Of a stretch of DNA of 64,000 bases, positions 4,123 to 55,978 are shown piece by piece. The first letter of the stretch is position 1, and each line of letters begins with the position of its first letter. Below the pieces are notes generated by a model, which worked only from the letters and a program-made list of their open reading frames with translations, did no database searches and was not told where the DNA came from. This DNA is from Candidatus Omnitrophota bacterium (GTDB lineage Bacteria > Hinthialibacterota > Hinthialibacteria > Hinthialibacterales > JAKPRU01), in NCBI GenBank assembly GCA_029570205.1, contig JAKQSI010000048.1:20857-84856 (forward strand). Direction: 5' to 3'. Position numbers and translations under genes: made by a program.

Positions 4123-6429
4123 TCAAAGAAGGTTGTACTTTCCCCCCAGACCAAGAAAGCGCAACAGAAATCGAATGGTGTAGTCTTCGTCCCGATCCAG
4201 ACGATTCCGATGTTCCAATTCGACAATCGCCTGAAAATCATGCAGGTTCCGAATAATGCTCAGGCGGCTCTTTCGGAGAATACTCTCATCCGCATCGTAT
4301 CGTTGACCGAGACGGAGTGAATATTTTTCGGATAATTTCAGTTGCGTATTCCAATACAACTCCTCCTGGCTGTCCACATCGATCAGTTCGTCCTCGAACG
4401 TGTTGAATCCGATACGGGAACTCCACCGGGCAATCGGTCGAACATCCACATAGACGTTGCTGGATCGTACCGTGCTGTCGTCGATGTCGTACCGGAGGTT
4501 GTTTCCGAGGGCAAACCAGTTTACCGGCGCCAGTTCGAATTCCTCGAAATAATCCGTGTAGCGATGATCGTCGGAATCCGCCTTGTCGTTGATGTAGGAC
4601 AGGTTATCGAAACGGAGATTCTCATCCGGGAAGTAATCGTAGGCGCTGCCCATGGTCAACCGGGCCAGCGTGTGAGTACCGTCCGGGGCCTTTCGCTGAA
4701 GCTTCGTATTGACCCGCGCGGATATACGGTGGAAAGTAGCGCGGAAGTCGTCAACATCGTCGATATACGGGAACCGATCACGCGGATCGACATCCAGGCC
4801 GATTTCCTCGAGATCCGTGTCCGGCTGAAAATAATCATATCCGAGAATCGGCTCGAACACGAAGCGCATTTTCCCCCAGGAACCCCCGGGATCGAAATAG
4901 GCAATGGATCGTGTACCGAGTTCGGTGCCGGTCTCAAGCATCCCACGGAACTCATCGTCAAATTCTTCATTTGCCAGGGCACGAGTCCGGCGGACCGGGT
5001 CGGAATAATTGGTCCCACGGTATCCGAGATAGGGCTGTAAGTACCAGCCGTATGCGAGGTCGAAGGGAGAGAAAAGCCGTAATTCGGCGTCGGTTCGCTG
5101 AATCTCTTCGATGTAATTGGTTTCATCCTTGGCGGAATGTCGGGGTTGATACCCCTGTTCGCGCCGGGCATCGTCATAGGCAACATGGGCGTCCAGATAA
5201 AGGCGCGTATCCATGAAGCTGGACGGCATCAAATCCCAGCGGGCCTGGGGAAGACGCTCGGTTCGTGGCAGCTGGCTGTAAAAGTAATCCTCAAGGTATT
5301 TTGTCCCGGTAACCCGGATTGTTTGACGATCCCAGCTCTTGGATACGGAGAGATCGGAGGGATAGTCCCGTTCGAGTTCATCGGAGGAAACACCGCGCAT
5401 CTCCATGACACTATCGAAATCTTCATTGAACTCAAAATCGGAAGAGCGGTGGAACCGGCTTCGCACGGTGATATCATAAGGGAGTGTCTGTCGGTAGTAC
5501 CCGTCGAGCCGATACCGATCGTCATCTTCAAAAAAATCGTCATCATCCGCATCACGCTGGCTCACCCCATACCATCGGATTCTCCCGTCCGGCCCGCCTT
5601 CACCGGGGAAATGAAAGTTCCAGGATGCCCCATACCCATACCCGACGTCCGAGAAGGTATCGCCGAAGAATGCGAGACGAAGACGGGGGTCCAGGTGTAC
5701 AATCAATTTGTGCATCGTGGTGAATCCCAGATGTCCCAAACTGGCGGCGCCGAAAATGTAGGCAATCCGAGGTCGGGCCAGGGAACGGGTAAAATAAGGC
5801 AAGTATCCCAGCGGGAAACCGTTCTGTACCCACCAGATGTCATACAACCAAAATCGGTCGCCCGGCAGAACAGTCATGGTGTCGTATTCAATGTAATAAT
5901 GGGGAACCGGCATGTCGCAGGTGGTGACCGTTCCGTCGAGAATGGTGTATTGGTCGATCATCTTCGGTTCGGTGGCTCCCCGGGGGATGTTGCCGGGGAC
6001 CTCCTGACGGATGACTTCTTTGCCGGTGATGTATAGTTCGGGGTCGATATAGGAATGTCTCAGGTTATAGAGGCGGGCTTCCTCCTTTTCGAGGTCGTAA
6101 ACCACCTGGTCGGCTACCATCAGCCGACCGTTGTCCCACATTCTGACATCTCCCTGGGCGCGGATCTGCTGTACATTCTGATCCACAACGACTTCGTCGG
6201 CGGTGATCGAGCGGTCTCCATAGACGACATTTGCCCGTTCATCTTCCCGACTCTTGATAATCAGCACACCTTCATCGCCCAGGTATTCCGCATCCCCGTG
6301 GCATTGAATCGGAATAGGAACGGGAAATGTGAATTCAGCGGTGGCATCCTCCTGCGCCCGGGTTGAGGAGGGGAAAATTGCCAAGCCGATGAAAACAGGA
6401 AACCACAGGCAAAATCCCGTCCGGACCAT
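4123..6429 (-). CDS. lptD: LptD/OstA-like outer-membrane LPS-assembly protein
   Basis: Signal peptide (MVRTGFCLWFPVFIGLAIFPSSTRAQ) begins at the internal ATG 6427-6429. It has an OstA-like N-terminal beta-jellyroll (DEVVVDQNVQQIRAQGDVRMWDNGRLMVADQVVYDL). The long C-terminus is aromatic- and Gly-rich, consistent with a beta-barrel. The ORF track extends to 6693, but the upstream part lacks a signal peptide. Confidence 0.55.
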   Translation of the reverse strand: MVRTGFCLWFPVFIGLAIFPSSTRAQEDATAEFTFPVPIPIQCHGDAEYLGDEGVLIIKSREDERANVVYGDRSITADEVVVDQNVQQIRAQGDVRMWDNGRLMVADQVVYDLEKEEARLYNLRHSYIDPELYITGKEVIRQEVPGNIPRGATEPKMIDQYTILDGTVTTCDMPVPHYYIEYDTMTVLPGDRFWLYDIWWVQNGFPLGYLPYFTRSLARPRIAYIFGAASLGHLGFTTMHKLIVHLDPRLRLAFFGDTFSDVGYGYGASWNFHFPGEGGPDGRIRWYGVSQRDADDDDFFEDDDRYRLDGYYRQTLPYDITVRSRFHRSSDFEFNEDFDSVMEMRGVSSDELERDYPSDLSVSKSWDRQTIRVTGTKYLEDYFYSQLPRTERLPQARWDLMPSSFMDTRLYLDAHVAYDDARREQGYQPRHSAKDETNYIEEIQRTDAELRLFSPFDLAYGWYLQPYLGYRGTNYSDPVRRTRALANEEFDDEFRGMLETGTELGTRSIAYFDPGGSWGKMRFVFEPILGYDYFQPDTDLEEIGLDVDPRDRFPYIDDVDDFRATFHRISARVNTKLQRKAPDGTHTLARLTMGSAYDYFPDENLRFDNLSYINDKADSDDHRYTDYFEEFELAPVNWFALGNNLRYDIDDSTVRSSNVYVDVRPIARWSSRIGFNTFEDELIDVDSQEELYWNTQLKLSEKYSLRLGQRYDADESILRKSRLSIIRNLHDFQAIVELEHRNRLDRDEDYTIRFLLRFLGLGGKYNLL

Positions 6430-6577
6430 CGCGCGGGCAGAGTACGCCTGGGGAACCACGCGGTTGGATGAGATTCCGGTCACAGGCATCAACCCGATAA
6501 ACAAAAGATTCTCTCTTCTACCATAGGCGTTCACCGGCGTCAATTTCCATGCGTTCGGATTTTGCGGGGAAAGAGGC

Positions 6578-7090
6578 TCATTTTTCCGCAAAGGTTCCCA
6601 GGATTTCCCCGTAATAGACCCGATGAAGGTCCGCATTCGGGTAAGCGGACTGCATGATCTCCTCGGCCAGATGTCCCGCCCGGATGTCTTCATAGTTGAC
6701 CACCACGCACTCGTAGCAGATTTCGCATTCCACGATGGTAGGGGATTTCACGAATTTTCCCGGAGCGGGTGTGATTTTGCATTCGGCGAATTTGTCTTTC
6801 TCTCTGCCGGATCGGCTGCCGCAGATCATGGTCACCTGCTCCATCCCCGGCGCGGGAACATTGACGGTGAAATCGCCGGTTGCCTCGATACAGCCATAGG
6901 TATACCTGGACGGACGCACCAAGACCGTGAAAATCGGCTTTCCCCAGACCACACCGACGGTTCCCCAGCCGATGGTCATCACGTTCGGTTTCAGGTTCCG
7001 GTCGAGGGAAGCCAGCAACAACCCGGCGCTTTCAAGCCTTTGCAGAGTCACATCCAGCAGATGGGTGTAGGGAACCTCGATCTTCGCCAT
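6578..7090 (-). CDS. flavin reductase-like (FMN-binding split-barrel) domain protein
   Basis: 170 aa. 'NVMTIGWGTVGVVWGKPIFTVLVRPSRYT' matches the flavin-reductase-like domain core. Confidence 0.55.
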   Translation of the reverse strand: MAKIEVPYTHLLDVTLQRLESAGLLLASLDRNLKPNVMTIGWGTVGVVWGKPIFTVLVRPSRYTYGCIEATGDFTVNVPAPGMEQVTMICGSRSGREKDKFAECKITPAPGKFVKSPTIVECEICYECVVVNYEDIRAGHLAEEIMQSAYPNADLHRVYYGEILGTFAEK

Positions 7091-7184
7091 ATTGCTTACC
7101 TCCCAAAGTCTGCTATGGACCTTTTCGGAACACCCCGTTTCGGGGTAATGAGCAATGAGACAGGGAATTTCCTTTCAATTCAAG

Positions 7185-7262
7185 GGAGATCCGTTGATGA
7201 GACCGAGAATCGCTCTTCCTCTTTCCGTTTGGTACGGGTTGAAGTAGGATTCTGAGGATAAC
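7185..7262. repeat. left copy of an ~80-bp imperfect direct repeat bracketing the low-GC island
   Basis: GGAGATCCGTTGAT...TCCTCTTTCCGTTTGGTACGGGTTGAAGTAGGATTCTGAGGATAAC. Two perfectly shared blocks of 14 and 15 nt plus a 20-nt near-identical core, with a divergent 18/24-nt spacer. The second copy is at 11833-11915. Confidence 0.6.
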
Positions 7263-7389
7263 CTGGAGACAATGTGGCATCCATGGTGTCCAGGAAGCGG
7301 GAGAAGACGCGGTAGGCAAATTATGGCATGGCGTGAGATGAACAGAGCCAGATGTGAAATAACCGAATAGAAACGGAAGGGATTCGCCA

Positions 7390-9222
7390 ATGAGGATCTC
7401 ACACATCAAAATCCACAATTTTCGGAGTATTCGAGAATTGGAAATTGTTTGCAGGCCCTTGATGATTCTGTTGGGACCAAACAACCACGGGAAGTCAAAT
7501 GTTCTGGCCGCTCTGGAGTTTTTCCTTACCCCTGGCGAGAAGGTCGAAAGATCGGATCTTTTTGATTTCGACTCGCGCAAGGATGAGCAAATCTGGGTTG
7601 AAGTCGAATTTCGGGAATTGACGCGCCAGGAGAAGACGACTTTTAAGAAGTACCTTCTGAGCGACCAAAGCCTTCGGGTCAGAAAGACGGCTACGTTTGA
7701 AGGAGACAAGCCGACATTCCAGTATCAGGGTTGGCTGGAAGAACCAAGGGTGGAGTGGCTTAGAGCTGACAATGCTGGAGATTATACGAATCGGGAGAAT
7801 ATTGGGGGAACCGGTTTGAAGGATTATATCCCAGCCTCGGGTAGATTGAGTAAGGCCAAGGTTGAAGAAGCGCAGCAAGCCTACTTTGCCGAACATCGCG
7901 AAGAATTGACGTTGGACCTTGTCTTTGAATCAGGAAACTTCCTCGGTCAGAAAAGTGTGGGCGGTGGCGTGCTGCCAGATTTCTATCTGGTTCCGGCTGT
8001 GCGTGATCTGTCCGACGAAACCAAGATCAAGAGCACAGCGCTATTGGGTCGCTTGGTAAATCGGGCAGTTCAGATCATGAGTGAGACGGACCCAGCATTC
8101 CTCGAAATTCAGAAACAGTTGGAGAAACAGATTGCACGACTGAATGAAAGGGACGTGGATGATCAACCGAAGATAGAACAGATTCGGGAAATTAAGTCTG
8201 GTCTGGAGGGCGAGCTGAAATCTTGGGACGTGAAGATTGACCTCCAGATCGAAACCCCCTCCATTGACAAGATTTTTGAACTGGGGACCTATTTACATCT
8301 CGATGACGGAATTCGCACCTTGGCCGAAAAGAAAGGCCACGGTCTCCAGCGTGCCCTGATTTTCGCACTGCTAAAGACATGGGCAAGGTTTGTCAGGTTA
8401 CAAACAGAAGAAGATAGTGGCGGGGAAACAAAGCCGCGAGTGAGTTCCGATTCGGTTTACTTCGCAATTGAGGAACCCGAACTATTCCTTCACCCCCAGG
8501 CGCAACGAGAATTGGCAACATCCTTGGCGATACTGGCCGAAGCCGAAGGATGTCAGGTGTTCGTTTGCACACACTCCAGTCATTTTGTTGATATGGAGCA
8601 ATATCAAAGCATCTGTCTGATCTCAAAACACAACCCACGGGAAGGATCGACTGTGCGTCAGTGCACACAGGACCTTTTTCCCGGAGACGACAACAAGGTC
8701 AAGAAAGATCGTCTGAATATGGCCTACTGGATCAATCCTGATCGTGGCGAAATGTTCTTCGGACGCAAAGTTATCTTTGTGGAAGGTCCCACAGAGAAAA
8801 CAGTGATTCCGTTTCTCGCTCGGAAAATGGACATTTTCGACAATGCGGTTTCTATAATAGACTGCGGTACAAAGCACAATCTTCCACTTTACATGACAAT
8901 CGCCAAGGCCTTCGCGCTCGATTACGTCGTTATCCACGATGAAGATCCGCTGCCCGACCCGATTCCCAACGATTGGCCCGATGACAAGAGAAAGGCGAAG
9001 AAAAATACGTTTGATCTGAATGCCACCATCCAATCATTGCTGGACGGCTCCCAAGGAAAAGTGCTCATGATCTCGCCGGATTTTGAGGAAGTTGCAGGCA
9101 TATCAAAGAGTCAGGGGGATAAGGTTGGCAAACCTCTTGCCGCCTTGCAGTATTTCGAAGACAAGTCCACGGAGAGCATTCCTGAGAGAATTCGAGAGTT
9201 GGTTCAGACCATATATGAGTGA
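7390..9222 (+). CDS. OLD-family (overcoming lysogenization defect) ATP-dependent endonuclease: N-terminal ABC-type ATPase + C-terminal Toprim
   Basis: 610 aa. Walker A 'LLGPNNHGKSNVL' at residues ~27-39. Signature/Q-like 'GHGLQRALIFALL'. Walker B/D-loop 'VYFAIEEPELFLHPQAQ'. C-terminal Toprim 'VIFVEGPTEKTVIPF...IIDCGTKHNL...YVVIHDEDP' (E, DxD). RBS GGAAGGG before the ATG. Confidence 0.75.
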   Translation: MRISHIKIHNFRSIRELEIVCRPLMILLGPNNHGKSNVLAALEFFLTPGEKVERSDLFDFDSRKDEQIWVEVEFRELTRQEKTTFKKYLLSDQSLRVRKTATFEGDKPTFQYQGWLEEPRVEWLRADNAGDYTNRENIGGTGLKDYIPASGRLSKAKVEEAQQAYFAEHREELTLDLVFESGNFLGQKSVGGGVLPDFYLVPAVRDLSDETKIKSTALLGRLVNRAVQIMSETDPAFLEIQKQLEKQIARLNERDVDDQPKIEQIREIKSGLEGELKSWDVKIDLQIETPSIDKIFELGTYLHLDDGIRTLAEKKGHGLQRALIFALLKTWARFVRLQTEEDSGGETKPRVSSDSVYFAIEEPELFLHPQAQRELATSLAILAEAEGCQVFVCTHSSHFVDMEQYQSICLISKHNPREGSTVRQCTQDLFPGDDNKVKKDRLNMAYWINPDRGEMFFGRKVIFVEGPTEKTVIPFLARKMDIFDNAVSIIDCGTKHNLPLYMTIAKAFALDYVVIHDEDPLPDPIPNDWPDDKRKAKKNTFDLNATIQSLLDGSQGKVLMISPDFEEVAGISKSQGDKVGKPLAALQYFEDKSTESIPERIRELVQTIYE

Positions 9223-10220
9223 TATTGCGTGAGCCCAACCGGAAAGCGATTTATGCAATGCCCGTTAATATGGACAAACCACATCTTTGGAAAGCAGACA
9301 TCGGGCGTTCCGTCGATTTCTACAACGACTGGTTCATGCGGTTTGCTCCGAAGGCATATCGAGATACCCGACAGGAAACAACCCGACAGGTGGAAGCCGC
9401 ACTCCGTTTGACTGGCAATCTAACCGACATTTCCCCGGAAACACTGTCACAGCATCCGGAGATACTTCCCATTTTTCGCATGGCAACTGCTCCGCCTATC
9501 GCTCGTGACAGATTGATAGGGCTTGCGTCCATCTCACCAAACCTCGTGAAGAACATGGAACTGAACCGGCGCATTCCTCCGAATATGGCGAACCAGAGAG
9601 TTGCAGACGAATTGGGACGAATCGGCTCTCTTATTCGGAAACTGGCCGATGCTGACATTCTTCCTTGGCTTGAAGACGAACATGTGCCAAAGAAGGCTGT
9701 CGTTCACCGCGCGGCAACAGTCATCGCGGATCGACTCTGTGGAGCGTCTGCAGATCCTATTATTCGAAACGCTCAGGAAAGACGCCAACTTGCGTTTATT
9801 CAAGACTGGCTTGAGAAGCGTCAATACCGAAATATAAAGCCCTCGATGGTCTCCGACTTCCGGGAAATGGAACCAGCCACTTTCTCCTTTCACCTCAACG
9901 CGCCCGTGACGCTCGAAGGTGGCCAAACTCGGATCAATATCCCCATTGATGTCGTGATCATGCCAAAGCAACGCAAGAGAAACCTCTTGCCGATTTTGAT
10001 TGAATGCAAGTCAGCGGGCGACTTCACGAATACAAACAAGCGCCGCAAGGAAGAAGCCATGAAGATTACCCAGCTACGATCCAATTATGGAAAGGATGTC
10101 TGCTTTATCCTATTCCTGTGCGGCTACTTCGACAGCGGTTATTTGGGTTATGAAGCCGCAGAGGGATTGGATTGGGTTTGGGAACATCGGATTGACGACC
10201 TGGTTTGCTTCGGAATTTGA
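9219..10220 (+). CDS. putative Type II restriction endonuclease (PD-(D/E)xK fold; possibly XamI/SalI-like family)
   Basis: 333 aa. The GTG start overlaps the upstream stop (GTGA); the first ATG is at 9258. Candidate catalytic core 'IDVVIMPKQRKRNLLPILIECKSAGD' (D...ExK) near the C-terminus. The gene immediately precedes and overlaps a DNA MTase gene. The family call is tentative. Confidence 0.45.
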   Translation: MILREPNRKAIYAMPVNMDKPHLWKADIGRSVDFYNDWFMRFAPKAYRDTRQETTRQVEAALRLTGNLTDISPETLSQHPEILPIFRMATAPPIARDRLIGLASISPNLVKNMELNRRIPPNMANQRVADELGRIGSLIRKLADADILPWLEDEHVPKKAVVHRAATVIADRLCGASADPIIRNAQERRQLAFIQDWLEKRQYRNIKPSMVSDFREMEPATFSFHLNAPVTLEGGQTRINIPIDVVIMPKQRKRNLLPILIECKSAGDFTNTNKRRKEEAMKITQLRSNYGKDVCFILFLCGYFDSGYLGYEAAEGLDWVWEHRIDDLVCFGI

Positions 10221-10222
10221 AG

Positions 10223-11803
10223 ATGAGACACCTAGAACAGCAGGAAGAGCGACGCCTTGCCCTTCAGACGCAGCTTGATGCGATGAAGACTCAAGCGGAA
10301 AGAAATCGCTTTGGGCAATTTGCCACACCGACCGCTCTAGCTGTCGATATTCTTGAATATGCAAAAACCATATTCCCCAGAGAGATGCCCGTTCGCTTTC
10401 TCGATCCGGCAATTGGAACAGGCTCCTTCTATTCCGCCTTTCTCCGGGTGTTTGGCAACACAACCGCACAGTGGGCAGTGGGCTATGAAGTTGACAAGCA
10501 TTATGCATTTCCTGCGCGGCAATTGTGGGACGCGTATCCACTCGATATTCGTGTTGATGATTTCACCAAGTCCGATCCTCCGATCGAGGAGGCAAGCAAG
10601 GCGACACTCGTGATCTGCAATCCGCCCTATGTTCGTCACCATCATATAAAGTGCACTGAAAAGGAGCGCCTTCACAGTATTCTCTTGATGAATCACGGAA
10701 TTTCTCTCTCTGGACTGAGCGGTCTTTATTGTTATTTCCTTTGTTTATCAAAGAAATGGATGGCACATGATGCGATTGCAGGATGGCTTATCCCCAGCGA
10801 GTTCATGGACGTGAACTACGGAAGAGCCGTGAAGGAGTTTCTGCTGGATCATGTGACATTGCTTCACATCCATCGTTTCTCACCGGAGGACACTCAGTTC
10901 AGCGATGCGCTGGTTTCTTCCGCTGTCGTATGGCTCAAGAACGCCACACCGCCACAAGGTCATCATGTCAGATTTTCTCTTGGCGGTTCACTACTAAGGC
11001 CTGTCAATGAGCAGACGTATTCTATTGATGTCTTATGTAAAATAGGCAAATGGACCTCCCTTCCACAGGCACACAGTCAAAGAAGTCTTGGCAGGCCCAG
11101 ATGGATCATCGGTGATTTCTTTGATGTCAAAAGAGGAATTGCCACCGGTGCCAATGACTTCTTTGTGTTGTCAGCCGAAGAAGCACTCCGCCGGTGCATT
11201 CCGCAGGAATTTCTTGTCCCGATTCTGCCCAGTCCACGATACCTCAAGTCCGACTTGATTGACGGCAATGAAACAGGGATTCCCCAAATTGAAAAACAGG
11301 TCTTCTTGTTCTCAAGTGAGTTATCTGAAGAACAGATTCAGAGACAGTATCCCCCTGTCTGGAGATACCTTCAGGAGGGACATGAACAGGGAATTCCTGA
11401 ACGGTACATCTGCCGGAATCGTGATCCCTGGTATTCCCAGGAAAAGCGAGCTGTTGCACCATTCCTTTGCACCTATATGGGCCGCTCAAGTCAACAGGAG
11501 AACTCGAAGCCTTTTCGGTTCATTCTGAATCGATCTCAGGCAATTGCCGGAAACGTTTATTTGATGCTTTACCCCAAATCCTGGGTCAGAAAGAGGATGA
11601 TAGAAGACCCCCATCTTCTGGAAGAGGTTTGGCGTGCTTTCAACACGATTCCTATTGAGAGTCTTCTTGGGAATGGGCGGATTTATGGCGGTGGCCTCCA
11701 CAAGATTGAACCCAGAGAATTGCTCTATGCACCTGCGGGGTCGCTTGCCTCACTTTTTCAGCATAACATCGATCCGCGTAGTGTTCAGACGACCCTTTTT
11801 TAG
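10223..11803 (+). CDS. gamma-class N6-adenine-specific DNA methyltransferase (Eco57I/TaqI-like)
   Basis: Motif X 'FGQFATPTALAVDIL', motif I 'FLDPAIGTGSFYSAF' and motif IV 'NPPY' in gamma order. It has a long C-terminal target-recognition region. A TTG at 10205 is an alternative start overlapping the REase stop. Confidence 0.8.
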   Translation: MRHLEQQEERRLALQTQLDAMKTQAERNRFGQFATPTALAVDILEYAKTIFPREMPVRFLDPAIGTGSFYSAFLRVFGNTTAQWAVGYEVDKHYAFPARQLWDAYPLDIRVDDFTKSDPPIEEASKATLVICNPPYVRHHHIKCTEKERLHSILLMNHGISLSGLSGLYCYFLCLSKKWMAHDAIAGWLIPSEFMDVNYGRAVKEFLLDHVTLLHIHRFSPEDTQFSDALVSSAVVWLKNATPPQGHHVRFSLGGSLLRPVNEQTYSIDVLCKIGKWTSLPQAHSQRSLGRPRWIIGDFFDVKRGIATGANDFFVLSAEEALRRCIPQEFLVPILPSPRYLKSDLIDGNETGIPQIEKQVFLFSSELSEEQIQRQYPPVWRYLQEGHEQGIPERYICRNRDPWYSQEKRAVAPFLCTYMGRSSQQENSKPFRFILNRSQAIAGNVYLMLYPKSWVRKRMIEDPHLLEEVWRAFNTIPIESLLGNGRIYGGGLHKIEPRELLYAPAGSLASLFQHNIDPRSVQTTLF

Positions 11804-11832
11804 TTCGTTCAGATCGGCTTCTCCGAATTCCC

Positions 11833-11915
11833 GGAGATCCGTTGATCACCACAGACCCGCCCTTCCGCATTCCTCTTTCCGTTTGATACCGGTTGAAGTA
11901 GGATTTTGAGATAAC
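11833..11915. repeat. right copy of the ~80-bp imperfect direct repeat
   Basis: GGAGATCCGTTGAT...TCCTCTTTCCGTTTGATACCGGTTGAAGTAGGATTTTGAGATAAC. It lies between the MTase stop and the glgP start. Confidence 0.6.
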
Positions 11916-11955
11916 GAATACAGGGAATTGGTTTTTCCATGGAGGATTGAAAAAC

Positions 11956-14505
11956 ATGCTTCGAAAATTCGTGGTCGCGCCACGTATTCCGGATTCGCTG
12001 AAACGGGTCCGGGAAATCGCTTACAACATCTGGTGGAGCTGGGACAAAGAGGCCATTGAACTGTTTCGCCGCCTGGACCGGATCCTCTGGGAACAATGCT
12101 ACCAGAATCCCGTTCGGATGTTGGGCTGCCTTTCGCAGGAGCGATACGAATTTCTTGCGAACGACGAAAGCTATCTCTCCCACCTGGAACGGGTGGCCGC
12201 GAAACTGGATGCTTATCTGAAGGCGCATACCTGGTTCGGCGAACAATCCTGCCCCATCAAGACATTTCGAGTTGCCTACTTCTCCGCCGAGTTCGGTCTG
12301 ACCGACTCTCTGCCGATCTACAGCGGCGGTCTCGGAATCCTTGCCGGCGACCATCTGAAATCCGCCAGCGACCTGGGCATTCCCCTCGTGGGAGTCGGGC
12401 TGCTTTACCGGCTGGGGTATTTTCGTCAGTACTTGAGCGTGGATGGCTGGCAGCAGGAGCTCTACCCGGAAAACGATTTCTACAACATGCCGGTGGAACT
12501 GGAGCGTGACGACAAAGGAAATCCGCTCCGAATTTCCGTCGAATACCCTCAAGGAGAGGTCAAAGCGCAAATCTGGCGGGTCAATGTGGGACGGGTCAAA
12601 TTGTACTTCCTGGACACGAACATTGAGGAGAACGCGCCGGAGAGCCGCCCCATTACGGGGCAACTTTATGTAGCCGATCAGGACATGCGGATTCGCCAGG
12701 AAATCATGATGGGGGTGGGCGGAGTGCGTGCCCTGCGTGCCCTGGGGATATCCCCCATGGTGTATCACATGAACGACACCCACCCGGCATTTCTGGCTAT
12801 TGAACGCCTTCGCGAAGTAATGACGGAGCACAAATTAACCTTTGAGGAGGCCTGTGAAGTAGTCACCGCCGGAACCGTCTTTACCACCCACACCCCGGTC
12901 CCCGCGGGCAATGAAACCTTCCCACCGGAATTGATCGACCGCTACTTCTCCACGTTCTATCCTCAGCTCACTCTCAACAGAGAAAGATTCCTCGCACTCG
13001 GTCGGATCGATCCGCACAACCGTGCCGAACCGTTCGGCATGACCGTGATGGCCTTGCGCCTTTCAGGAAGACACAACGGAGTCAGCCGTCTGCATGGTGA
13101 GGTCGCTCGGAAAATGTGGAATCCGCTCTGGAAAGATGTTCCGCAGGCCGAGATCCCTATCATGCACATCACCAATGGTGTGCATATCAATACCTGGATC
13201 TCTAATGATCTGGTGGGGTTGTATGATCGTTATATCGGTCCTCGCTGGACGCTGACCCCGGCGGATCAGAGCATCTGGAAACGGGTGGACCAGATTCCCG
13301 ATGCGGAATTGTGGCGGACGCATGTCCGACGGCGTGAACGGCTGGTCGCGTTTGCGCGACGGCGTTTACGGATGCAATTGACAAAACGGGGCGCACCCCG
13401 CGCCGAAATTGAGCAGTCCGATGAGATCCTGGACCCGGAAGCCCTCACCATCGGATTTGCGCGACGATTTGCCACGTACAAACGCGGAACACTGCTGTTC
13501 ACCGATTTGAATCGACTGAAACGAATCCTCTCTAATCCGGAACGGCCGGTCCAGATTATCTATTCCGGAAAAGCCCATCCCGCCGATAACGCCGGAAAGG
13601 AACTCATTCGACAGGTCATCCAACATGCACGCACAGAGGATTTTCGCCGAAGAATTGTGTTTCTCGAGGACTATGATGTGAAAGTTACCCGATACCTGGT
13701 CCAGGGCGCCGATGTCTGGCTCAATACACCCCTTCGGCCCATGGAGGCCAGCGGAACCAGCGGCATGAAAGCCGCGGCGAATGGGGCGCTCAACATGAGT
13801 ATCCCCGACGGCTGGTGGCCGGAGGCCTACGATGGAACCAACGGCTGGACCATCGGGCAGGGCGAGGACTACTCGGACCGGAATTACCAGGACCGGGTCG
13901 AAAGTCAGGCCATCTACGACATGCTGGAAAAAGAAGTCATCCCCATGTTTTACAACCGGGGATCCGACAATATCCCGCGTGAGTGGCTGAAGGCGATGAA
14001 ATCCACTTTGCGCACCATCTGCCCCGTGTTCAATACCAACCGGATGGTGAAAGAATACATGGAACGCTCCTACCTCCCATCGGCGACACGGTGGGCACAT
14101 CTCACAGTCGATGACATGGCCCGCGCAAAGGCGTTGGCTGCCTGGAAACAGAAAGTCTCTTCCGAATGGAAAAATCTCAAAATCCTTCATGTCGAAACGG
14201 ATATGCCGGAGAACGTGGAGGTCAACGTCTCTTTTGTGGTTTCCGCCGAAGTGCAGCTGGGCGGATTGGCCCCCAAGGACGTCGCGGTGGAACTGTACTT
14301 CGGACCGTTGGACTCCCAGGGGAATATCGCCTCAGCGGAGGTCGCTCCGATGACTCTCCAGCACACGCTGGGCGCAGGACGCTATAAGTTCAATACGCTG
14401 GTATCCTGCTCCACCAGCGGTCAACATGGCTACACAGTCCGCATCCGGCCCTCGCATGAGGATTTGTCCAGCCGGCACGAAACCGGCCTGCTGTGCTGGT
14501 ATTGA
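11956..14505 (+). CDS. glgP: alpha-glucan (glycogen/maltodextrin) phosphorylase, alpha-glucan-family type
   Basis: GGAGGA RBS 9 nt before ATG 11956. N-terminal DUF3417-like region (IWWSWDKEAIELF). PLP-lysine motif 'EASGTSGMKAAANGALN'. ~850 aa. Confidence 0.8.
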   Translation: MLRKFVVAPRIPDSLKRVREIAYNIWWSWDKEAIELFRRLDRILWEQCYQNPVRMLGCLSQERYEFLANDESYLSHLERVAAKLDAYLKAHTWFGEQSCPIKTFRVAYFSAEFGLTDSLPIYSGGLGILAGDHLKSASDLGIPLVGVGLLYRLGYFRQYLSVDGWQQELYPENDFYNMPVELERDDKGNPLRISVEYPQGEVKAQIWRVNVGRVKLYFLDTNIEENAPESRPITGQLYVADQDMRIRQEIMMGVGGVRALRALGISPMVYHMNDTHPAFLAIERLREVMTEHKLTFEEACEVVTAGTVFTTHTPVPAGNETFPPELIDRYFSTFYPQLTLNRERFLALGRIDPHNRAEPFGMTVMALRLSGRHNGVSRLHGEVARKMWNPLWKDVPQAEIPIMHITNGVHINTWISNDLVGLYDRYIGPRWTLTPADQSIWKRVDQIPDAELWRTHVRRRERLVAFARRRLRMQLTKRGAPRAEIEQSDEILDPEALTIGFARRFATYKRGTLLFTDLNRLKRILSNPERPVQIIYSGKAHPADNAGKELIRQVIQHARTEDFRRRIVFLEDYDVKVTRYLVQGADVWLNTPLRPMEASGTSGMKAAANGALNMSIPDGWWPEAYDGTNGWTIGQGEDYSDRNYQDRVESQAIYDMLEKEVIPMFYNRGSDNIPREWLKAMKSTLRTICPVFNTNRMVKEYMERSYLPSATRWAHLTVDDMARAKALAAWKQKVSSEWKNLKILHVETDMPENVEVNVSFVVSAEVQLGGLAPKDVAVELYFGPLDSQGNIASAEVAPMTLQHTLGAGRYKFNTLVSCSTSGQHGYTVRIRPSHEDLSSRHETGLLCWY

Positions 14506-14582
14506 GGATTTGCGCAGGCGGGGAGGGCGATAGTGTGGATCATGGCCGGGACGTCCATGCCACGGTGTGGCACGAACCGGTA

Positions 14583-54355: not shown

Positions 54356-55978
54356 ATGAGCAGCAAAGATGTCGTTGATATCCTGGAGCGCATCAGCCTG
54401 GAAAAAAACATTCCACTGGACTCGCTTTATGACGCTTTGGAGTCCGCCCTGATTACGGCAAGCAAAAAAATGCTCGATCCGGAGATCGACGTCACGGAAG
54501 CGGAAATCGACCGGGAAACAGGTGATTTTCGCGTATACGCCACCAAGACGGTCGTGGAAGAAGTAACCAATCCAAACCTGGAACTCGCCCTCAGTGAGGT
54601 ACAGGAAGAAATCCCCGACATAGAGCCGGGCGAGGAACTGACGGTGGATGTTACGCCGACCGATTTTGGCCGAATCGCGGCTCAAAGCGCCAAGCAGGTG
54701 ATTACCCAACGTATTCGGGAAGCCGAACGGGAAATGGTCTATGACAAGTATAAGAACCGGGTCGGCGAACTGGTGATCGGAACCGTGCAGCGCCATGAGA
54801 AAGGAAACGTGATAGTGGACTTGGGGGGTGCGGAGGCCTGTCTGCCGCGTTGCAACATGGCTTTCGGCGAACGATTCCGGTACGGCGAGCGAATCAAAGC
54901 GATCATCTCCGAGGTTCGTGACGTGCGGAAACAACAGGCAAAAGAGTCTGCCCCAACCGGCCACCATGACCGTCGCGACAGGGATCAGGTCCCGAAAGAT
55001 GCCTTGGTGATCCTTTCCCGCAGAAGCCCCCAGCTGGTGATCAAATTGTTCGAGCAGGAGGTGGCGGAGATGCGTGAAGGAACCGTTTCCATCCGCCTCA
55101 TTGCCCGCGAACCCGGAAAGCGCAGTAAAATCGCCGTCCTCTCCTCCGATAATAACGTCGATCCGGTCGGCGCCTGTGTCGGCATGAAAGGCTCGCGTGT
55201 TCAGATGGTCGTTCAGGAACTGCGCGGGGAAAGAATCGACATTGTTGAATACAGCGACGATAAACGCCGATTTGTTGCCAATTCACTCAAACCGGCGGAG
55301 ATCGAAAGCGTGGAACTGAGCGAGGATGGGCGGCGGGCATTGCTTGTCGTGAAAGATGAAGAATTGTCTCTTGCCATCGGGAAAGGCGGCCTGAATGCCA
55401 TGCTTGCATCTCGCCTGACCGGCACGGAAATCGATATCATATCGGTCTCCCAGCTTGCCGAACGAGAAGCGGAAGCCAAAAAGGAATTGCTGGAACTGCC
55501 TTCGGTCCACGATGCCGAGGCGGAAATCCTCATGGGAAAAGGACTGCTTTCGGCAATCGATATCGTGGAATATGGCCTGGAAGAACTGAAAGCGCTGGAA
55601 GGCATGTCTGAAGACACTGCGGAGAAAATCTATCGCGAGGCATTACGGGAAATCGGGGAACTGGAACCGGAACCCGAAGAGTCCGAAGAACCTCAAGAAC
55701 CCGGAGAACCCGAAGAATTTGAAGGACCCGGAGAACCTGTAGAACCCGAAGCGCTGGAAAAATCCGAAAAACCTGAAGAAAAAGGAGAAACGGGAGAAAC
55801 GGAAATCGAGTCAAACGACGATCTTGCCGAGGAACAAATCGAAGACACACCGCAAGAGGACGAAATGGAGCAGATGGACGAGACGGAAGATGAAGATGCG
55901 GATAACGAGGACATGGCGACGCCTGAAAATCTCGACGAGGATATGAAGGATCAGCCTGGCTCCATCGGAACGGCCTGA
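54356..55978 (+). CDS. nusA: transcription termination/antitermination factor NusA with long acidic C-terminal tail
   Basis: N-terminal domain, S1 (ELVIGTVQRHEKGNVIVDLGGAEACLP), two KH domains, and one HhH-like region. Then ~120 aa of E/P/D-rich low complexity. Confidence 0.9.
   Translation: MSSKDVVDILERISLEKNIPLDSLYDALESALITASKKMLDPEIDVTEAEIDRETGDFRVYATKTVVEEVTNPNLELALSEVQEEIPDIEPGEELTVDVTPTDFGRIAAQSAKQVITQRIREAEREMVYDKYKNRVGELVIGTVQRHEKGNVIVDLGGAEACLPRCNMAFGERFRYGERIKAIISEVRDVRKQQAKESAPTGHHDRRDRDQVPKDALVILSRRSPQLVIKLFEQEVAEMREGTVSIRLIAREPGKRSKIAVLSSDNNVDPVGACVGMKGSRVQMVVQELRGERIDIVEYSDDKRRFVANSLKPAEIESVELSEDGRRALLVVKDEELSLAIGKGGLNAMLASRLTGTEIDIISVSQLAEREAEAKKELLELPSVHDAEAEILMGKGLLSAIDIVEYGLEELKALEGMSEDTAEKIYREALREIGELEPEPEESEEPQEPGEPEEFEGPGEPVEPEALEKSEKPEEKGETGETEIESNDDLAEEQIEDTPQEDEMEQMDETEDEDADNEDMATPENLDEDMKDQPGSIGTA

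Follow-up and report, generated by a model that had tools for sequence, protein, structure and literature searches.

An OLD-family nuclease gene heading a SalI/XamI-type restriction-modification pair: a portable module and possible second layer of defence

The 64-kb stretch of DNA from Candidatus Omnitrophota bacterium analysed here (the window) carries a three-gene island in which an OLD-family gene, predicted to encode an ABC-type ATPase fused to a Toprim nuclease, directly precedes a Type II restriction-modification (R-M) pair of the SalI/XamI kind, formed by a restriction endonuclease (REase) and a DNA methyltransferase (MTase). A sister lineage keeps the same R-M pair at the same site without the OLD gene, and relatives of the OLD protein recur within operons of several other restriction-type systems. 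The best explanation, to which we would give a probability of about 0.6, is that of an R-M cassette accompanied by a portable OLD module, which would act as an autonomous second layer of defence. The island and its surroundings comprise the following features:

6578-7090, minus strand: flavin-reductase gene, left neighbour of the island
7185-7256: left, imperfect copy of a direct repeat, consisting of GGAGATCCGTTGAT followed by a variable spacer (17 nt) and a core of 41 nt
7292-9227, plus strand: OLD cassette, with a 98-nt leader, the OLD open reading frame (ORF) and 5 nt beyond it; missing in the sister lineage
7390-9222, plus strand: OLD-family ABC ATPase-Toprim nuclease of 610 amino acids, Class-1-type by sequence
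9223-9257, plus strand: 35-nt spacer between OLD and REase; the sister lineage, which has no OLD, carries a homologous sequence just upstream of its REase
9258-10220, plus strand: XamI/SalI-family Type II REase of 320 amino acids (333 from an alternative GTG at 9219)
10223-11803, plus strand: Eco57I-family gamma-class N6-adenine DNA methyltransferase of 526 amino acids
11834-11910: second copy of the direct repeat, on the right; the phosphorylase gene start (11947) follows after 36 nt
11947-14505, plus strand: glucan-phosphorylase gene (GlgP), right neighbour of the island

The OLD protein displays the two parts that define this nuclease family, an ABC-type ATPase at the N-terminus and, at the C-terminus, a Toprim domain with its glutamate and a DxD metal site. 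Pfam searches returned AAA_15 (1.3e-38, residues 1-400), AAA_21 and OLD-like_TOPRIM (3.6e-15), and the best PADLOC model was 'Old' (9e-66), the AriA model matching the ATPase part (5e-43) and covering only residues 1-400. Among solved structures, Thermus scotoductus Class 1 OLD is the closest (TsOLD, 6p74; 8e-30), and Gabija GajA structures match residues 1-83 only. Both the ATPase motifs (Walker A GPNNHGKS at 29-36, EEPE at 361-364 and the H-loop region THSS at 394-397) and those of the Toprim domain (VEG at 464-466, holding the Toprim glutamate, and HDED at 516-519) are intact; VEG and HDED align with the same motifs of TsOLD, and all the catalytic motifs fall in invariant columns of an alignment of the OLD protein with 23 homologues (24 sequences). 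Judged from these alignments, the gene is full-length and its catalytic motifs are preserved. In regard to the known classes, no helicase gene as in Gabija or Class 2 systems is found within 7185-11915, the ATPase and Toprim parts are fused in a single 610-residue ORF and not divided as in PARIS, and the gene is not an isolated one as described for Class 1, with an R-M pair 35 nt downstream and a clade that often sits beside or inside restriction operons. What we find is a gene that leads a restriction operon, co-oriented with it and tightly spaced. The clade, for which a search gave more than 2,900 matches, is hardly represented on viral contigs (one full-length match in IMG/VR).

The REase aligns with RE_XamI (PF09572; 1.8e-111) over profile positions 2-256 of 256 and with the PADLOC model REase_II (3e-108), and its residues PID (242-244) and ECK (262-264) fit a PD-(D/E)xK site, read by inspection as D244...E262-x-K264; no solved relative was found in a structure-database search, so the fold is assigned from sequence. 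The MTase matches Eco57I (1.2e-11) and MTase_II of PADLOC (3.3e-127), has an M_Eco57I_C domain, and presents motif I (DPAIGTG, 61-67) ahead of NPPY (133-136), which is the gamma-class order. Such an Eco57I-type enzyme 2 nt downstream is the cognate MTase expected of a Type II R-M system, and the same pairing is seen in relatives L101-L104. Some REase homologues are labelled SalI by their sources, XamI is an isoschizomer of SalI, and the predicted target of the pair is probably GTCGAC. This hexamer occurs twice in the window, where 19.8 ± 4.7 copies are expected from shuffles or 16.3 from a Markov model, a scarcity that fits long exposure to a SalI-type enzyme; it is supportive only, because several other 6-bp palindromes are also depleted against the Markov expectation (GGGCCC 0 against 10, CATATG 0 against 7.4 and GCATGC 1 against 12.8). 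As an observation in its own right, these absent or near-absent palindromes hint at exposure of the window to several Type II specificities.

Most of the layout described in an earlier note on this DNA is confirmed: the three co-oriented ORFs (7390-9222, 9219/9258-10220 and 10223-11803), their identities as OLD, REase and m6A MTase, which Pfam and PADLOC profile searches support, and the 333-residue REase-like protein with a PD-(D/E)xK site, for which the RE_XamI match and the site pattern agree, with a product that is more likely of 320 residues. The lower GC content noticed there is also found (about 0.49 against 0.55-0.56), with 0.487-0.506 in the three island genes versus 0.557 in the left and 0.546 in the right flank. 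The same note had coupled OLD and REase translation through an overlap, and GTG 9219 indeed overlaps the OLD stop codon (GTGA); its use as the REase start is disfavoured by the homologues. Since nearly all of the best 120 homologues have 320 residues, as does the NCBI annotation of the source contig (L002), and the PADLOC REase_II alignment begins at residue 16, the REase probably starts at ATG 9258, which leaves a 35-nt spacer after the OLD stop and makes the translational overlap probably an artefact of start-codon choice. The ATG of the MTase (10223) lies 2 nt, and not 3 nt as given before, past the REase stop. No terminator-like site is present in the OLD-REase or the REase-MTase junction, so that none separates OLD from the R-M pair. 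Altogether, the shared direction, the spacers of 35 and 2 nt and the lack of a visible terminator make it probable that the three genes are carried on one transcript. A sigma-70 promoter scan gave 2 sites against 4.5 expected and is uninformative for the host organism.

The modular character of the OLD gene is revealed by comparison with close relatives of the locus. The window sequence recurs on several contigs from metagenomes and metagenome-assembled genomes (MAGs), and, with the phosphorylase as query, two contigs were found that belong to a sister lineage (L105 and L106), whose proteins are 93% (phosphorylase), 94% (flavin reductase), 92.5% (REase) and 81% (MTase) identical in amino acids to those of the window. 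This lineage has the same R-M pair, the same site, the same flanks and the same repeats, without OLD. In BLAST, L105 aligns to window positions 5258-7257 and 9233-14512; the 1.94 kb at about 7292-9227 are replaced in it by some 63 non-homologous nt (L105 2049-2111), and homology restarts about 30 nt ahead of the REase ATG. In this line, local alignment of the 35-nt OLD-REase spacer with the L105 sequence upstream of the REase scores 12 (shuffles, 6.1 ± 1.2). The OLD leader (7292-7392) was also considered as a homologue of the REase leader of L105, an idea rejected at a score of 9 against a shuffle mean of 10.2. Given that the sister lineage holds the same R-M pair, locus and repeats without it, OLD is a separable module of 1.94 kb, either gained in the window lineage or precisely lost in the sister one. 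Moreover, because a lineage diverged by some 15% in DNA carries the R-M pair at the same site, the pair appears to predate that divergence and is no recent arrival, which renders doubtful, for these two genes, the recent horizontal acquisition that had been read into the low GC. The three closest XamI homologues examined (70-77% identity) are likewise plain REase-MTase pairs without OLD. A discrete element with recognisable termini around OLD was sought and discarded, as comparison of the six closest OLD genes revealed no sequence in common on either side of them.

Regarding its occurrence elsewhere, the conserved OLD-REase-MTase order envisaged by the earlier note did not hold: no XamI REase was found by blastp in 80 OLD loci from GTDB species genomes, and the pairing is also missing in the three close XamI loci and in the sister lineage. 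The suspicion that OLD is more than a chance neighbour fared better, since its clade lies repeatedly in tight co-oriented blocks with unrelated methylation-based restriction systems. Among the close OLD relatives (69-71% identical), the four that are informative are all directly upstream of Type II or Type III R-M genes, with arrangements such as:

L099: OLD, 33 nt, D12-class MTase (MTase_II, 1e-87), 11 nt, HNH REase (REase_II, 5e-48)
L006: OLD, 16 nt, Type III Mod, Res (MTase_III, 2e-176; REase_III, 5e-139)
L098: OLD, 205 nt, Type III Mod at the contig end

Two further close relatives are uninformative, L005 having no co-oriented partner and about 100 nt upstream on its contig, and L100 ending just past OLD. 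A wider survey covered 76 genome loci with OLD proteins of 35-57% identity, grouping same-strand genes with gaps of at most 100 nt. In 19 of the 76, OLD stands in a tight co-oriented block of a restriction-type operon, as given in the first four lines of the following breakdown:

Type I operon (HsdM-OLD-HsdS and variants; 2-nt gaps in L022 and L024): 7/76 loci
Type III operon (Mod-OLD-Res in 3; after Mod-Res in L020): 4/76 loci
BREX operon (BrxC-PglX-OLD-PglZ-BrxL): 3/76 loci
SNF2 helicase-OLD-DUF1156 methylase-DUF499 operon: 5/76 loci
Conserved uncharacterised partner of 343 amino acids (Bacteroidota): 10/76 loci
Other partners: 16/76 loci
OLD alone: 31/76 loci

In a neighbour-joining tree the window OLD groups with L100, L099, L005, L006 and L098, and the Type III and BREX contexts are scattered over the clade, which argues for repeated switching of context.

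The explanation preferred here would then proceed as follows. The SalI/XamI-type pair would be a complete and autonomous first-line system, long resident between the flavin-reductase and glucan-phosphorylase genes, and in the window lineage the OLD cassette sits between the left end of the island and the REase start. Its clade would serve as a portable accessory of Type I, II and III, BREX and DUF1156-methylase/DUF499 operons, whose proteins are mutually unrelated. Because no partner protein is conserved across these contexts, OLD is better viewed as an autonomous second layer than as a subunit of the REase, and for the same reason a physical leash of the PrrC-EcoprrI kind is disfavoured. By analogy with P2 OLD, PARIS, PrrC and HEC-04, from which we infer the path from trigger to effect, the ABC-ATPase part may respond to a cue from the phage (for example DNA ends, DNA structures that are aberrant or replicating, or an anti-defence protein), whereupon DNA or tRNA would be cleaved by the Toprim nuclease, halting those infections that escaped restriction. 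Trigger, substrate and any synergy with R-M are all proposed on this basis, and the benefit of linkage would lie in joint expression and inheritance with the first-line system. The anti-anti-restriction backup that the earlier note suggested is the same inference that published work on embedded modules draws from PrrC and PARIS. A stronger version, in which the whole clade forms a type-independent restriction guardian that perceives failed or bypassed restriction by Type I, II, III or BREX-like systems, seems unlikely; it would call for a common signal, for instance unmethylated replicating DNA or unprocessed DNA ends, leading to cell death or arrest without a specific protein partner.

Simple co-inheritance would dispense with any functional interplay: an independent single-gene defence of Class 1 would have landed beside the R-M pair, addictive and horizontally mobile R-M cassettes being good vehicles, and its embedding would be a by-product of defence-island dynamics at the operon scale. 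It would account for the 31 of 76 clade members that are alone, for the confinement of the exact OLD-XamI pairing to one population, for the stand-alone R-M pairs of the sister lineage and three relatives, and for the lack of a conserved partner protein. Chance neighbours, however, should show mixed orientations and larger gaps, whereas OLD always has the orientation of the host operon, lies at the R-M head in four of four informative close relatives and is inserted tightly and precisely elsewhere (separated by 2 nt from hsdM and hsdS, or placed between mod and res or between the halves of a PglX-like gene), and on balance we consider co-inheritance alone somewhat improbable. A helper role, in which OLD as an exonuclease or nickase would destroy the fragments made by the REase (or by Type I and III enzymes) and replace RecBCD when inhibited by phage, keeping restricted DNA from repair or recombination, is more doubtful still. 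P2 Old and the T. scotoductus enzyme, the latter being the nearest solved relative of the window protein, are 5'-3' exonucleases that linearise plasmids in vitro, P2 Old is tied to RecBCD loss (PMC10568477), and the clade is associated with several types of DNA-cleaving systems. Nevertheless, the host systems include BREX, for which DNA cleavage is not known (PMC10568477), recent work attributes to P2 OLD an effector activity as a tRNase (10.64898/2026.07.10.737580), E. coli YbjD produces its phenotype without need of the Toprim domain (PMC13261556), and the substrate is not readable from sequence.

Several points also weigh against an autonomous second layer linked to R-M. The intact R-M pair of the sister lineage indicates that OLD is dispensable to it, and with about 40% of the clade alone the association is frequent and not obligatory. 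Defence genes cluster through co-transfer alone. The 98-nt leader specific to OLD could hold a promoter of its own. No Type II enzyme is known to be targeted by DNA mimics of the Ocr type, which weakens a trigger like that of PARIS. Finally, the survey relied on a simple ORF caller and on one annotated representative per cluster of neighbour proteins, and the evidence at the locus itself is confined to its sequence.

The clade presents further arrangements that are worth recording. In two unrelated genomes, a Bacillota MAG and Tepidimonas fonticaldi (L028 5677-12167; L030 6112-11782), OLD is found between two ORFs that are halves of a PglX-like BREX methylase and correspond to residues 1-929 and 967-1558 of a single 1766-residue ORF in L048 (2635-7935); either OLD was inserted inside the methylase gene in L028 and L030 or the L048 gene is a fusion. 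The same BREX-OLD layout appears in two places of Tepidimonas NZ_VJOO01000006.1 (L030 92753-110537; L095 71012-88838), about 21 kb apart and with identical locus coordinates, which corresponds either to a large duplication or to an assembly repeat. Bacteroidota homologues of OLD (~40% identity) are followed at a gap of at most 7 nt by the conserved 343-residue protein (e.g., L063 9801-10832; also L062, L067, L068, L070, L072, L077, L082, L090 and L094), which has no match in Pfam or PADLOC and may form with OLD an undescribed two-gene system; its interpretation as an REase with an upstream methylase was dropped, as the upstream genes vary (SIR2/pAgo-like, HerA, Type II MTase). In L020 (1057-9893) and L021 (3994-9893), OLD lies 42 nt downstream of Metallophos (SbcD-like) and 902-residue SMC/AAA_15 (SbcC-like) genes, which in L020 come after a Type III Mod-Res pair within one co-oriented block. 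In L008-L017 one OLD protein (57% identity) recurs on many contigs beside a divergent BrxC/PglY-like DUF6079 gene, with four distinct downstream contexts starting within ~0.5 kb of the OLD stop, apparently at the edge of a variable region.

The borders of the island are marked by the direct repeat of about 75 bp, whose two copies, the only ones in the window, match at 14/14 positions of the 14-nt block and 38/41 of the core, and which also flank the OLD-less R-M pair of L105 (~1939-2000 and ~4714-4815). The repeat resembles the long target duplications at R-M insertions that the Kobayashi laboratory has reportedly described. An empty site without the R-M pair was not found, the 78 further phosphorylase loci (43-60% identity) being without synteny. 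A known RNA was considered for the repeat and discarded, as the window has no Rfam match at gathering score and a snoRNA match (E 0.22) is at chance level; no tRNA gene is present in the window either. Elsewhere in it, positions 55670-55795 hold a tandem 9-nt repeat (GAACCCGAA-like, at least 11 units) that, if coding, would give an acidic Glu/Pro-rich repeat.

The earlier note had held such an architecture to be undescribed, and in kind it is already published. The embedding of modules with an ABC ATPase and a Toprim nuclease was described in 2024 for Type I R-M, BREX, DISARM and Hma systems, with HEC-04, one such module, defending by itself (bioRxiv 10.1101/2024.01.29.577857), and in 2026 TOPRIM-linked OLD-ABC genes of BREX and BREX-related loci in at least 1,242 taxa were called 'backup suicidal effectors' (PMC12839542). 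Previously, in 2010, the Type IIF PluTI R-M system had been reported to share a mobile unit with a helicase and an OLD-family gene (PMC2875022). PrrC and PARIS are regarded as guardians of R-M (PMC12707154), and P2 OLD as a tRNase triggered by single-stranded DNA hairpins and by aberrant DNA in recB cells (bioRxiv 10.64898/2026.07.10.737580). Class 1 OLD genes are defined as single genes without defence neighbours (PMC10568477, PMC6755086). Their proteins are widespread, yet reviews still present the genes as isolated ones of unclear cellular role. In the literature compared, which did not include Krishnan et al. 2020 (NAR gkaa726; cited for an account of OLD-ABC conflict systems), Type II or III operons headed by a full-length OLD of Class 1 type were not found described. 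Thus, the concept of embedded back-up modules is known, and it is the Type II and Type III contexts, together with the natural pair of loci with and without OLD, that extend published work. One large clade of Class 1 type turns out to be integrated again and again into operons of Type I, II, III, BREX and related systems, and a Type II cassette that exists with and without OLD at one chromosomal site offers a handle to distinguish cooperation from co-travel with restriction, its minimal set of three genes being far simpler to take apart than a BREX or Type I system. If the clade were a restriction guardian, the two lineages would be a ready-made test pair; if co-inheritance were all, this would be a routine observation on defence islands.

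Among the known systems, PrrC-EcoprrI and PARIS (AriA/AriB) share with the window OLD an ABC-type ATPase and a nuclease in association with restriction, and are read as guardians that act when restriction is disabled (PMC12707154). However, the effector of PrrC is an anticodon-nuclease domain, and its Type Ic partner keeps the protein inactive, whereas the window protein has a Toprim effector and no conserved partner, and PARIS consists of two proteins where here the parts are fused. The PluTI unit of Photorhabdus likewise joins a Type II R-M system and an OLD-family gene inside direct repeats, but with short repeats derived from insertion sequences and a plu0597 helicase/plu0598 OLD pair that would be Gabija-type by today's naming (PMC2875022); the window locus lacks a helicase, and its OLD gene immediately precedes the REase. 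SalI/XamI systems present the same full-length RE_XamI, the same REase-MTase order with a 2-nt gap (L101-L104) and a gamma-class Eco57I-type MTase; these relatives and the sister lineage lack the third gene found in the window. The specificity of the window REase is a predicted one. Class 1 OLD proteins (P2 Old, TsOLD 6P74 and E. coli YbjD) resemble the window protein in length and in having no helicase, reverse transcriptase or separate Toprim partner, with TsOLD as its best solved match and 'Old' as its top PADLOC model, yet they are encoded by isolated genes, unlike a gene that heads an R-M operon and whose clade is often inside restriction-type operons. HEC-01 and HEC-04 (Payne et al. 2024) and the OLD-ABC/TOPRIM genes of BREX are also ABC ATPases and Toprim domains nested in methylation-based operons, and BREX, Type I and DUF1156/DUF499 contexts were also recovered for this clade; HEC-04 is not among the best 25 PADLOC matches of the window protein, so that a common family is not established. 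While published surveys comprise Hma, BREX, DISARM, Type I and BREX-related hosts, in the present case the host is a two-gene Type II system, with Type III systems in close relatives.

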